Notes under the pieces: generated by a model
What the model saw: the letters and a program-made list of their open reading frames with translations, nothing else
What the model was told of the DNA's origin: nothing
Database searches by the model: none
Shown: positions 16,837-21,223 of the stretch, piece after piece
Layout: each line of letters opens with the position of its first letter
How positions within the stretch are numbered: position 1 is the stretch's first letter
Source: an uncultured archaeon
GTDB lineage: Archaea > Asgardarchaeota > Thorarchaeia > Thorarchaeales > Thorarchaeaceae
Direction: 5' to 3'
Assembly: GCA_964648855.1 (NCBI GenBank)
Contig: CAZYLT010000027.1
Location: 1-22,736 of the forward strand
DNA length: 22,736 nt
Program-made: the position numbers and the translations under genes

Positions 16837-18621
16837 TCAGTGTTCATCATCGACTAAGACTCCTCGAATCCTAACCAATCCCGCGCCAATGTTTTCTTGT
16901 TTCTTGATTCTGAAGCCACCAATTTCGCCAGTATGCTCAACATGCGGACCTCCACAAAGCTCCATGCTGAAATCATCCACCTTATACACAGAAACTTTGT
17001 CCCCATACTTTTCTTTGAAGAATGCTAGAGCTCCTTTTTCGATTGCTTTGTCATAGAGCATAACCTCTCGTTCAACCTTCATATCCTGGTCGATTGCCCA
17101 ATTGACCAAGTCTTCTACTTCCTTCAATTCCTCGTCTGTCAGCTTGCGGGGAAAGGTGAAATCGAACCGAGTCCGTTCCTTCGTAATATTGCTCCCACTC
17201 TGCTTGACTTTGGGGCCAAGCACCTTCCTCAGTGCTGCCTGTAATAAGTGTGTGGCAGTATGGAGTTTAGTAATGATTTCACTATGGTCCGCTAGGCCAC
17301 CTTTGAATTTGTCCTTTGTAGCACTGCGTGACTTCTCTCTATGCTCTTCAAATTGGCGATGAAACTCTTCCATGTCAATCTTGATACCATGTTCCCGGGC
17401 TATCTCTCGGGTCATCTCAGGAGGCAATCCAAAACTGGTGAAGAGCAAGAACGCATCCTCGCCTGTAATGGTTCCTGAGTTTTTGAGAATTCTGTTCAGT
17501 TTTCGCAGGGCTTTTCGCAGTGTTCTACGGAACTTCTTATCTTCTCGCTCCGCATGCTTCAGGATAAATTCTTTATTCCGCTCTAGTTCATCATAAGTTT
17601 CCTTGTAGATGTCGATAACTATCTCCGCCAATTTACCTATGAAGCCTTTGCCGATTCCTAATCTATCTGCACTATGAATTGCATTTCGCAAGAGCCTACG
17701 TACAATATATCCTCGCTCCACATTGGAGGGCGCAATCTTGCGGTCGTCTGCCATTATGAAGGTGGCAGAACGCACATGGTCTGCTACAGTCCTCACAAGC
17801 CTATCATCCGTTTCATCAATTTCTTCTCTATCTGCCATCTCTCGAATTTTCGCTACTATGGGCGAGAATAGGTCGGTTTCATAGACGGTAGCAACACCCT
17901 GAAGCATTGCGGTTGTTCTTTCCACTCCCATTCCAGTATCGATATTTTTCCGTTCTAGGAGATCGTAAGTACCATCTGCTTTCTTGTTGTATTGCATGAA
18001 GACGTCGTTCCATACCTCAACAAAATGACCACAGTTGCACCCAGGGGTACAATCTGGACCACATCGTGGGATGCAATCATTCTCTATGAACATCTCCGTA
18101 TCTGGCCCACATGGCCCTGTTGCTCCCGCTGGTCCCCACCAATTGTCTTTCTTAGGCATATAGAAAATCCGTTCTTCTGGAATTCCACATGCCTTCCAAG
18201 CCTTTGCCGATTCCTCGTCACGAGGAGCATCATCATCGCCTTCAAAGACAGTGACATACAGCGATTCAGGATCAAAGCCAAGCCATTCATCCGATGTGAG
18301 AAATTCGTAGCTCCATTTGATTGCTTCGTCCTTCCAATAGTCATCTAGGCTCCAATTACCCAGCATCTCAAAGAACGTTAGATGGGTTGTATCACCCACT
18401 TCATCAATATCAGTGGTGCGTACACACTTCTGAACACTCGCGAGTCGTTTTCCCATTGGATGGGATTGGCCCAGAAGATATGGCACTAGCGGGTGCATTC
18501 CAGCAGTTGTGAAGAGTACTGTGGGGTCGTTCTCAGGCACAAGTGATGCTGATGGAATAACTTCATGGTCCTTCTGTCTGAAGAATTCTAAGTACTTCTT
18601 CCGTAGTTTATCTGATTGCAT
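16837..18621 (-). CDS. alaS: Alanine--tRNA ligase, short form lacking C-Ala domain
   Basis: DPTVLFTTAGM, QKCVR, FFEMLGNWS, GPCGP and IDTGMGVER; editing motifs HTATH and ELCGGPH. GGGTGA RBS. Confidence 0.97.
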   Translation of the reverse strand: MQSDKLRKKYLEFFRQKDHEVIPSASLVPENDPTVLFTTAGMHPLVPYLLGQSHPMGKRLASVQKCVRTTDIDEVGDTTHLTFFEMLGNWSLDDYWKDEAIKWSYEFLTSDEWLGFDPESLYVTVFEGDDDAPRDEESAKAWKACGIPEERIFYMPKKDNWWGPAGATGPCGPDTEMFIENDCIPRCGPDCTPGCNCGHFVEVWNDVFMQYNKKADGTYDLLERKNIDTGMGVERTTAMLQGVATVYETDLFSPIVAKIREMADREEIDETDDRLVRTVADHVRSATFIMADDRKIAPSNVERGYIVRRLLRNAIHSADRLGIGKGFIGKLAEIVIDIYKETYDELERNKEFILKHAEREDKKFRRTLRKALRKLNRILKNSGTITGEDAFLLFTSFGLPPEMTREIAREHGIKIDMEEFHRQFEEHREKSRSATKDKFKGGLADHSEIITKLHTATHLLQAALRKVLGPKVKQSGSNITKERTRFDFTFPRKLTDEELKEVEDLVNWAIDQDMKVEREVMLYDKAIEKGALAFFKEKYGDKVSVYKVDDFSMELCGGPHVEHTGEIGGFRIKKQENIGAGLVRIRGVLVDDEH

Positions 18622-18753
18622 GATATTTCACCCAACCGCTAGTAGATTGTTAATCTTAGCTCAAAGAGACTGTGATTAAAACGCTTTTGATAGCGTTAAA
18701 TGTAAAGAGGAGGGACGTGCTCTCAGATTCTGAGAAAATCATTGTGTAGATGA

Positions 18754-19251
18754 TCAAAGAAGGATTAAGCCTGACGGAGTCATACGATACCTAATGAGTC
18801 GCGAGTCCAATTGGGGATATCGTTCACGCCAATCGAGAAACCGATCATTGCTGATGATATTTGCGTTCCTTTGTTTGGCAAGCTGGATGATGGTAAGGTC
18901 ATCATCAGTTCCACGAGGAGACTCAATTACAATCTTCCTATTCTTAAGCGATTGCAAAATGTCTGGTTGGTCTATCCTATACTTCAATGCAGCAGATACA
19001 ACAATGATGGGTCGATAACCAGTTGATTTCAGGCTTTGATACGCCCGCAAAAGATTGGATACCTGAGGAGTGCCATTGGTAGACATATAGAAAGCAATAT
19101 TGTTGCCATCTAAGACCAGCTTCCTTCTTGTAGATGGCTTCGGGACGGAATCTCTTTGGCTATTGCCTCTACGACATCGCTGTACATGTGCATCCAACTT
19201 ATCACGATTGAATAGCCTTCCACAACAAGGACAACGCGCTCTTTTTGGCAT
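18754..19251 (-). CDS. C2HC zinc finger + NYN/PIN ribonuclease (Zc3h12a/Regnase-like)
   Basis: N-terminal CPCCGRLF...LDAHVQRC. Catalytic motifs VLDGNNIA, TDDDLTII and IISNDRFLDW. Confidence 0.82.
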   Translation of the reverse strand: MPKRARCPCCGRLFNRDKLDAHVQRCRRGNSQRDSVPKPSTRRKLVLDGNNIAFYMSTNGTPQVSNLLRAYQSLKSTGYRPIIVVSAALKYRIDQPDILQSLKNRKIVIESPRGTDDDLTIIQLAKQRNANIISNDRFLDWRERYPQLDSRLIRYRMTPSGLILL

Positions 19252-19300
19252 ATTTGACCATTTATAACGTCAGAAGCCCTCTTTTTCATGTTTTTGTATT

Positions 19301-19314
19301 AAAATGCGCATTTT
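19301..19314. promoter_or_regulatory. Perfect 14-bp palindrome AAAATGCGCATTTT adjoining the putative TATA box of the NYN gene
   Basis: Seen directly. It overlaps the minus-strand TTTTAATA about 45 nt upstream of the NYN ATG. Confidence 0.4.
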
Positions 19315-19378
19315 TTCTCAAAACCATCTGATTTTGAAACATAAGGAAGTTTCAAAAGGAAAGTATACTATAATGTAT

Positions 19379-19473
19379 TGTCATACTGTTTACTAAATAG
19401 TATGATACGGCGTCCGATCTAGTTGTTTCCGTCCTCCCGGCGGTTTAGGCGGGCGCCACTTTTTGACCTTTTT
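19379..19473 (+). ncRNA. Candidate small structured RNA or leader: two stem-loops followed by T-tracts
   Basis: Hairpin 19379-19407, then a GC-rich stem-loop 19409-19457 whose non-Watson-Crick pairs are all G-U on the + strand, then TTTTT-GACC-TTTTT. Confidence 0.45.
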
Positions 19474-19576
19474 AGAAATTAATATACCAAGAACAACCAG
19501 TAAGATACGATATACCAAATCTTTGATATTGAGATGGTGATATCTCAGTATCTAGTTTCCATGATGAGGAATAAGA

Positions 19577-21223
19577 ATGAGTAATCAAATTAAGGCGAGA
19601 GCGCTAGAAAGAGTGGATTTGTCAGCAGTCAAAATGGTAACTGATAAGGAGGAAATCAGAGATACTTATGCACTCTATTTGGATGACGAGAGTCATTCAT
19701 TTGACGGCGACGCTGATAAGCTTGTTTTTCCTACCAATGAGGCGGAACTTGCAACTATCCTTAGGGACACCTATGAGAATGGGATTCCTGTGACAATTCA
19801 GGGTGGGAGAACTGGTCTCACTGGGGCGGCGGTTCCATTAGGCGGTATCGCACTCAATCTCGAAAAAATAAACAGATTGCTTTACTTGAAATGGAATCCC
19901 GAGGAAGAGCTCTATTCTGTTGCAGCTGAGGCAGGAGTCCTGCTAGAGGATTTAGTCAAGGTTGTTTCTGGCAAGAAAATGGATGAGTTGAGTGGGGAAA
20001 AAAAGAGCGCTTATGAGGAGGGCATAGAGAAGTTCATGCAAGAGGAGGGTGAGTATACGTTCCCAGTTGATCCGACTGAGATGAGCGCATGGATAGGGGG
20101 TATTACCGCCTGCAACGCATCGGGCGCCCGTACATTCAACTATGGAGCAGTGAGAAACTGGGTACATAGAATTAGGGTGGTACTACCTAATGGAGAACTA
20201 ATCGATATCAAACGCGGCGATGTGATTTCAGAAAATGGTGAATTTGAAATCATTCTATCTACTGGCAGCACAATTCTGATTCAAGTACCCACTTATGAAA
20301 TGCCAAATACGAAGAATGCAGCCGGCCTATTCGCCCGGCATGAGATGGATTTGATAGACTTGTTTGTCGGATCCGAAGGCATCTTGGGGGTAATCACCAT
20401 GGCTGAATTGGGTTTAGTGAAACTCCCCGAAGAAATCATGACTGTGATGGCATTTTTCCCTAGTGAAGAAGATGCCGTCAACTTTGTGTATGATATTCGA
20501 TCTCCGGATACGCCCGTAAAAATGAATTTCTTGGAATACTTTGGTCCGAACGCGTTAGACATGATTCGTGAGAAAGCAAGTGACTCAGGAATTACCGTCC
20601 CAGCCCTGTCTGAGGACACTAAAGCAATTGTGTTCTTTGAGTTCGAATATACAGAAGAGAATATGGAAGACCTCGTAATGGGATTGGAGATGGTTCTCAA
20701 CGAGCATAATTCCTCATCGGAGTCAAGTTGGGCGGGATTGGACCGCACCGAATTAGAAAAGATGAAGACAGTACGTCACTTCGTGCCTGAAACTGTCAAC
20801 GCACTCATTGCACAACGAAAAGCACAGTATCACAAGGTACACAAAATCGGTACAGACATGGCTGTTCCAGACCAAGCACTTCGGGAATATATCAAGTTCT
20901 ACCGAGAATTATTAGAAGAGCAGGGAATGGAGTATGTCATTTTCGGACATATAGGAGATAACCATCTGCATGTCAATATGCTCCCAAGGAATAATGAAGA
21001 AGTCGAACAAGGCATGGACAACTATATGACCTTTGCAAAACGGGCCGTGGAATTGGGAGGAACTGTTGCAGCCGAGCATGGGATTGGAAAATTGAAACGC
21101 AATTTCTTGAAAGTCATGTATGGAGATGAGGGCATTAAAGAGATACAAAAGGTTAAGCAAGCTATAGATCCTCAATGGTTACTTAATAGAGGGAATATGG
21201 TAGAGGTCCCTCCTGATAGATGA
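19577..21223 (+). CDS. FAD-binding oxidoreductase (GlcD/D-lactate dehydrogenase family)
   Basis: GGRTGLTGAAVP, FPVDP, NASGA, FVGSEGILGVI, FGHIGDNHLHVN and AEHGIGKLK. GAGGA RBS. Confidence 0.92.
   Translation: MSNQIKARALERVDLSAVKMVTDKEEIRDTYALYLDDESHSFDGDADKLVFPTNEAELATILRDTYENGIPVTIQGGRTGLTGAAVPLGGIALNLEKINRLLYLKWNPEEELYSVAAEAGVLLEDLVKVVSGKKMDELSGEKKSAYEEGIEKFMQEEGEYTFPVDPTEMSAWIGGITACNASGARTFNYGAVRNWVHRIRVVLPNGELIDIKRGDVISENGEFEIILSTGSTILIQVPTYEMPNTKNAAGLFARHEMDLIDLFVGSEGILGVITMAELGLVKLPEEIMTVMAFFPSEEDAVNFVYDIRSPDTPVKMNFLEYFGPNALDMIREKASDSGITVPALSEDTKAIVFFEFEYTEENMEDLVMGLEMVLNEHNSSSESSWAGLDRTELEKMKTVRHFVPETVNALIAQRKAQYHKVHKIGTDMAVPDQALREYIKFYRELLEEQGMEYVIFGHIGDNHLHVNMLPRNNEEVEQGMDNYMTFAKRAVELGGTVAAEHGIGKLKRNFLKVMYGDEGIKEIQKVKQAIDPQWLLNRGNMVEVPPDR

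Follow-up and report, generated by a model that had tools for sequence, protein, structure and literature searches.

A Conserved Hairpin RNA Gene Divergent from a Regnase-Type NYN Nuclease Gene in Thorarchaeota

The hairpin at positions 19409–19460 (+ strand) of the contig analyzed here is a conserved + strand RNA gene in its own right. It is apparently an undescribed non-coding RNA family of Thorarchaeota, and it is arranged head-to-head (divergently) with the gene of a small protein, ZF-NYN, composed of a zinc finger and a NYN ribonuclease domain. The window, i.e., the whole stretch of DNA analyzed, is an entire 22.7-kb contig from a 3.1-Mb archaeal genome; the source names on its proteins and contigs are those of Candidatus Thorarchaeota, an Asgard lineage.

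To our knowledge, very few structured non-coding RNAs from Asgard archaea are known, and for none of them has a tie with an RNA-decay enzyme been described. As the family has covariation support and a defining model, it can now be annotated in Thorarchaeota genomes. The 60-nt RNA and the 165-aa protein pose the question of whether Regnase-type nucleases already worked together with stem-loop RNAs of their own before the origin of eukaryotes. Should the RNA and the nuclease be unrelated, the hairpin would still be a novel sRNA, restricted to one lineage, whose loop is anti-Shine-Dalgarno-like and whose natural knock-outs can be compared with their relatives.

Structure of the Hairpin

The hairpin is located in the 325-nt spacer between the ZF-NYN gene (18754–19251, − strand) and the start, at 19577, of a gene for a GlcD-like FAD-linked oxidase (19577–21223, + strand). 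The oxidase, recognized by its domain matches, lies outside the conserved unit; in the window genome its gene begins ~115 nt downstream of the hairpin and on the same strand. The RNA gene was delimited by its fold, by covariation and by a covariance-model match of 47.9 bits, which is the sole match in the genome.

The hairpin is GC-rich and rod-like, with a length of 52 nt in the window genus (short form) and 58–66 nt in other genera. Its three helices are all formed by the + strand. In the outer helix, P1, positions 19409–19416 (GGCGUCCG) pair with 19450–19457 (CGGGCGCC); the middle helix, P2, joins 19418–19422 (UCUAG) with 19445–19449 (UUAGG); and the inner helix, P3, is formed by 19429–19433 (CCGUC) and 19439–19443 (GGCGG), which enclose the invariant loop CUCCC (19434–19438, + strand). 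The hairpin is followed by two T5 runs (19461–19465 and 19470–19474, + strand), a likely archaeal terminator of the RNA; the trailers of orthologs are pyrimidine/T-rich at the same place.

An earlier, sequence-only reading of this DNA had described a GC-rich stem-loop followed by two T5 tracts, and the sequence and the helices read as it claimed. Its further claim, that mismatches of the G–U type favor the + strand and speak for selection on RNA structure, is borne out by the folding energies given here and by the comparative data below. Folding of region 19360–19480 yielded −38 kcal/mol for the + strand (z-score −4.4; none of 200 shuffles as good) vs. −23.1 kcal/mol for the − strand (z-score −0.9; 33 of 200 shuffles as good). 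Since the two energies differ, the strand asymmetry arising from G–U pairs is real.

The same reading had pointed to a second, 13-bp hairpin. This AT-rich structure is indeed present just before the element (19379–19407, + strand, by fold), but its conservation does not extend beyond the genus: among the 19 RNA-bearing loci (24 loci compared) it was found in that of G001 alone, a genome of the same genus. It overlaps the likely promoter/transcription start region of the hairpin RNA, and it is probably outside the conserved RNA.

A 41-aa open reading frame (19393–19518, − strand) runs antisense across the hairpin RNA. It is very probably a by-product of the GC-rich hairpin sequence and not a gene.

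Conservation and Covariation

The ZF-NYN protein was searched for in 40 related genomes, and the DNA upstream of each ortholog was inspected. The same hairpin element was found upstream of ZF-NYN in 19 of the 24 genomes of the family, with an invariant core, GUCCUCCCGGCGG, and with ends that read GGCGUC...GCGCC. All 19 orthologs, when folded singly, form the same three-helix rod of 52–66 nt.

A covariance model was built initially from nine sequences and rebuilt with 18. In the alignments obtained, 92.4% of the paired cells (18 sequences) and 90.5% (32 distinct sequences) hold a base pair, and both-sided (compensatory) changes are present at 10 of the 21 base pairs; since these are model-fitted alignments of related genomes, the counts lean towards structure. 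The folds of single sequences, obtained independently, are in accord with the counts. None of 500 shuffles reached the observed values for pair types, both-sided pairs, percentage paired or covariation, and in a control with the pairing partners slid, pairing fell to 31–70%. Read on the − strand, the identical columns are 70.9% paired vs. 92.4% on the + strand, because many of the pairs are U–G; one U–G pair is found unchanged in each of the 32 distinct sequences.

The terminal helix (GGCGUCC/GGRCGCC) and the apical hairpin (CGUC-CUCCC-GGCG) have a fixed sequence, in contrast to the covarying middle helix; this pattern suggests that a partner recognizes the two fixed parts. An alternative helix of the 5′ strand of P3 and the 3′ arm could form in 93% of the cells; one concerted change was observed, in genus g2, and it amounts to a single lineage event.

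Occurrence of the RNA

According to the covariance model, the RNA is present at one copy per genome, and the window genome has exactly one. It was detected in 58 of the 87 genomes of the class, all of them in a single family (f1), where 13 of the 17 genera are represented. None of 124 genomes from 26 other families of the phylum carries it by the same model. A comparison with Rfam, which the sequence-only reading had proposed, placed the hairpin in no Rfam family: at gathering thresholds the window has no match in Rfam 15, and at E up to 10 nothing overlaps 19409–19460. ARAGORN predicted no tRNA or tmRNA at the element. The genes for the canonical RNase P RNA and for SRP RNA are at other places in the genome. 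A description of this hairpin RNA was not found in a literature search.

A gapped DNA pattern was also run over genome contigs. Its matches were mostly in GC-rich bacteria. Among the 80 pattern loci re-scored by the covariance model, these matches reached at most 30 bits and are due to chance; four Thor/Promethearchaeota loci alone reached 55–72 bits. Two matches on viral contigs obtained no covariance-model score.

Genome G062 contains two RNA–NYN pairs, on contigs C70 and C239, both of them divergent. They probably belong to two strains binned together, because the contamination estimate of this genome is 7%.

Transcription Signals

Over 41 loci the A/T content has its maximum (0.88–1.00) at −28 to −25, counted from the initial G of the hairpin, and in 23 of them the most A/T-rich 8-mer is centered at −27 to −24. 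Archaeal TATA boxes canonically occupy the region from −28 to −25. At the opposite end, the 3′ trailers of the orthologs are pyrimidine/T-rich (41 loci). In the window, inspection pointed to AAAGTATACTATAATG at 19360–19375 (+ strand; position inferred here) as a candidate BRE/TATA box for the RNA. The best TATA candidate in the window genus (19364–19373) stands ~14 nt further upstream than in other genera, so the RNA of this genus may have a short 5′ leader.

The hairpin RNA could be transcribed from its own TATA box, transcription ending at the oligo-T/pyrimidine tract. The promoter-like box and the T-rich end would fit an independently transcribed archaeal small RNA gene, the expression, ends and stability of which are deduced from its sequence.

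A perfect 9-bp palindrome, TTTTGAAAC-N8-GTTTCAAAA, is located in the divergent promoter region (19332–19357, no strand assigned). Its half-site, TTTCAAAAGG, recurs ahead of the RNA promoter in three genera (g1, g7 and g8), which suggests that the palindrome may serve as a transcription-factor operator.

The ZF-NYN Nuclease

The product of the ZF-NYN gene is 165 aa long and combines an N-terminal C2HC zinc finger with a Zc3h12a-type NYN RNase domain, as judged by Pfam, AlphaFold, Foldseek and invariant residues. Its match to Pfam RNase_Zc3h12a (PF11977) scores 57.7 bits (cut-off 23, E 1.5e-15); that to zf-C2HC_2 is sub-threshold (20.7 bits vs. a cut-off of 27). Residues D48/N51, D117/D118 and N135/D136 are invariant in 30 orthologs, and the catalytic motifs (D-x-x-N, DD, N-D) align with those of KHNYN and ZC3H12C. 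Of the zinc ligands, C7, C10 and H22 are invariant and C26 is present in at least 90% of these 30 orthologs. The AlphaFold model has a pLDDT of 85.9, and the best Foldseek matches were ZC3H12B/C, MCPIP1/Regnase-1 and KHNYN, then PRORP (E 2e-8 to 4e-6); the top structures 6sjd, 7ndh, 3v33, 5h9v and 8wzc have E 2e-8 to 2e-6 and a TM of about 0.65.

The protein is, by its predicted activity, a minimal Regnase-type NYN nuclease in which an N-terminal C2HC finger stands in place of a C-terminal CCCH one. A CCCH finger C-terminal to the nuclease domain, which marks the Regnase subfamily proper, is absent from ZF-NYN. The sequence-only reading had called the gene an intact zinc-finger/NYN nuclease; the Pfam match and the catalytic residues agree with it, with the correction that the finger is N-terminal and of the C2HC type, unlike that of Regnase.

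The eukaryotic Zc3h12a-type NYN RNases (Regnase-1/MCPIP1, ZC3H12B/C, KHNYN, N4BP1; PF11977) resemble ZF-NYN in the Pfam match, the predicted fold, the acidic catalytic residues and the attached zinc finger. The thorarchaeal protein differs from them in being archaeal, 165 aa long, provided with a single N-terminal C2HC finger and no further domains, and encoded beside alaS. The RNase_Zc3h12a-type family comprises 2,488 representatives at E up to 0.001. A survey of PIN-like domains described the function of the bacterial members as unknown and counted only 23 archaeal members (PMC5499597).

The neighboring alaS gene (16837–18621, − strand) codes for a short, 594-aa alanine-tRNA ligase, recognized by its Pfam and NCBIfam (NF002436) matches. 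It is the sole AlaRS catalytic gene of the genome, and its product has no C-terminal C-Ala domain. A conserved BRE/TATA-like sequence, CGAAAGCGTTAAAATC, at 18672–18693 could be its promoter box, as judged by sequence conservation.

Linkage of the RNA and ZF-NYN Genes

In all checkable loci (19 of 19 and 29 of 29, i.e., 48 loci spanning 13 genera), the RNA gene is divergent from the ZF-NYN gene and lies 96–204 nt from its start codon. ZF-NYN is followed by alaS on the same strand in nearly all loci. The other flank of the RNA has been rearranged several times across the relatives. It is occupied in most genera by the 3′ end of a convergent gene for a CitMHS-type permease, and in other genera by a metallophosphoesterase gene, with the FAD oxidase gene ~1.1 kb away.

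The RNA has been lost in several lineages. In G100, as compared with its sister species G003, the RNA gene has been removed by a clean deletion of ~150 nt between conserved flanks (loci L223 and L014), and decayed copies remain in G079 (L228) and G077 (L221; 28 bits). These three genomes represent natural RNA knock-outs. Beside NYN, no copy was detectable in genera g6 and g11 and in a part of g4, even with filters off. At the RNA-lacking loci NYN keeps its catalytic residues in all cases and its zinc finger in all but G052. Full-length ZF-NYN orthologs are also encoded in two other Asgard families, where they have no upstream GC-rich hairpin and do not adjoin alaS.

Since the RNA has been lost where NYN is intact, and since orthologs exist without it, the RNA is unlikely to be an antitoxin or an obligate cofactor of the nuclease. 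It is possible that the hairpin RNA is a substrate, decoy or regulator of ZF-NYN, the evidence for this being their linkage. A spacer of 100–200 nt with two promoters in it could, for its part, resist rearrangement without any functional coupling of the two genes.

Possible Functions of the RNA

It is somewhat probable that the hairpin represents a dispensable, independently transcribed trans-acting regulatory sRNA with an invariant C-rich (anti-SD-like) loop. Such an RNA would act in trans through this loop and the apical stem, and two modes of action could be proposed. The loop could pair with G-rich ribosome-binding sites, as is known for the C-rich loop sRNAs of Gram-positive bacteria and Methanosarcina; the loop and its 5′ neighbor, CCUCC(C), match the anti-Shine-Dalgarno sequence letter for letter. 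Alternatively, the RNA could be bound by a protein, the adjoining ZF-NYN nuclease being the first candidate. Several points count against the sRNA reading. The sole conserved unpaired stretch, of 5 nt, is short for a base-pairing seed, and a conserved target was not found by complementarity: when the genome was searched for sequences complementary to the invariant core, only tRNA 3′ ends and scattered chance sites came up. The invariance of the paired regions, moreover, would be more in keeping with recognition by a protein or with a conformational switch than with a simple antisense mechanism.

Protein recognition is central to a rival explanation, according to which hairpin and ZF-NYN form a dedicated RNase–RNA module, the hairpin being a specific substrate, decoy/sponge or guide whose loop or stem is read by the zinc finger. 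The linkage unbroken in 48 loci of 13 genera despite the changing other flank, the intact and Regnase-like nuclease, the invariant paired regions, as expected for recognition by a protein, and the known action of Regnase-family enzymes on stem-loop RNAs are in its favor. However, a NYN with finger and catalytic residues stays where the RNA has been deleted or has decayed, the ZF-NYN orthologs of two other Asgard families have no upstream hairpin, and linkage over a 100–200-nt, two-promoter spacer can last without function. In addition, Regnase-1 prefers pyrimidine-purine-pyrimidine triloops, which the CUCCC loop does not resemble. On balance, a module of this kind is conceivable but rather doubtful. 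That hairpin and ZF-NYN are a dedicated pair in Thor-type Asgard archaea, the nuclease being tuned, titrated or targeted by its own stem-loop RNA, is unlikely; if true, such a pair would give the stem-loop-directed RNA decay of eukaryotic Regnase/Roquin a prokaryotic counterpart, in the archaeal lineage closest to eukaryotes. A type III-like toxin–antitoxin system, with the RNA neutralizing a toxic NYN nuclease, is very improbable. The analogy had been drawn in the sequence-only reading, and the adjacency of an RNase gene and a structured RNA gene is its sole support. The RNA is a single hairpin with no tandem repeat array, and it is divergent from the nuclease gene instead of preceding it on the same strand; the nuclease belongs to another type than ToxN/AbiQ; each of the two genes is present once and passed on vertically, next to the sole alaS; and the RNA has been lost while the nuclease stayed intact (G100, G079, G077, genera g6 and g11). 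The analogy had to be abandoned.

The element could also work at the level of DNA or transcription, either as a bidirectional terminator/insulator between the convergent upstream gene (CitMHS permease or phosphoesterase) and NYN–alaS, or through divergent transcription tuning the NYN promoter. In most genomes a same-strand gene ends 10–60 nt from the hairpin, and read-through from it would face the complement of the hairpin and then the T-rich complement of the RNA promoter. This explanation is nevertheless improbable, as the G–U pairs favor the + strand (92% vs. 71% paired), the element is retained at loci that lack such an upstream gene, the window among them, and an invariant loop and an invariant U–G pair are not needed for a terminator. 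The position of the convergent gene bears equally on the suggestion, made earlier from the sequence, that the element is a 5′ leader/attenuator of the FAD-linked oxidase gene. The two are on the same strand and directly adjacent in the window genome only; in relatives the oxidase gene is ~1.1 kb off with another gene in between, has the opposite orientation or is missing from the locus. Even in G001, a genome of the same genus, the RNA is followed by a convergent gene, which is CitMHS permease-like by sequence similarity only. Where the next gene is convergent, as in most genomes, the element cannot be a 5′ leader. The synteny comparison that the earlier reading had outlined is decisive here: when synteny breaks, it is the NYN gene, not that of the oxidoreductase, that the element accompanies. 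Conserved and covarying, it follows NYN, and therefore the leader/attenuator alternative fails; a role of this kind can hardly be credited at all.

Three further candidates were tried and rejected. A tRNA-like minihelix or AlaRS substrate, with a 7-bp end helix and an NCC tail, was dismissed by inspection, as position 3:70 is C–G or U–A, not G–U, and the loop is unlike an anticodon loop. A replacement of RNase P (the PRORP-like idea) was discarded owing to the canonical RNase P RNA in the genome. A decoy of the alaS leader was also considered, as the motif CGUCCCUCC occurs in the NYN–alaS spacer of the window genome; it is not conserved in other genomes.

Comparison with Known RNAs and RNase–RNA Systems

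The favored reading of the hairpin as a trans-acting sRNA brings it close to the RsaE and RNAIII hairpins of Staphylococcus and to Methanosarcina sRNA41, whose C-rich (UCCC) loops pair with Shine-Dalgarno sequences. The likeness consists in a stable hairpin, in a CUCCC loop within GUCCUCCCGG complementary to GGAGG-type sites, and in a promoter and terminator, which are predicted here. Unlike these C-loop sRNAs, to which it has no sequence or Rfam relation, the thorarchaeal hairpin has a single 5-nt loop, and its paired regions are invariant as well.

The type III toxin–antitoxin systems (ToxIN, CptIN, TenpIN) share with the locus the adjacency of an RNase gene and a structured RNA gene. They differ in nuclease fold; the thorarchaeal RNA has no repeat array and is divergent, the genes are vertical and single-copy, and the RNA can be lost while the nuclease is kept. 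The bacterial Y RNAs encoded beside rsr (Ro60) are similar in their long conserved stem of the 5′ and 3′ ends, their U-rich tail and their maintenance beside the gene of an RNA-binding protein. However, the Thorarchaeota locus contains neither a Ro/TROVE gene nor a tRNA-like module, and no Rfam Y_RNA match was obtained at threshold.

Other Genes

A second, distant NYN paralog of 132 aa, which has no zinc finger, is encoded in the window genome, G000 (C3:243108–243485; L034, 1534–1932). It stands directly behind a gene for a 193-aa protein, LigD phosphoesterase domain-like by eye, which leaves no room for a hairpin element.

ARAGORN predicted 17 tRNA genes in G000 without the intron mode and 42 in that mode, which means that introns are present in most of its tRNA genes. 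A tRNA-SeC gene is located on its contig C6.
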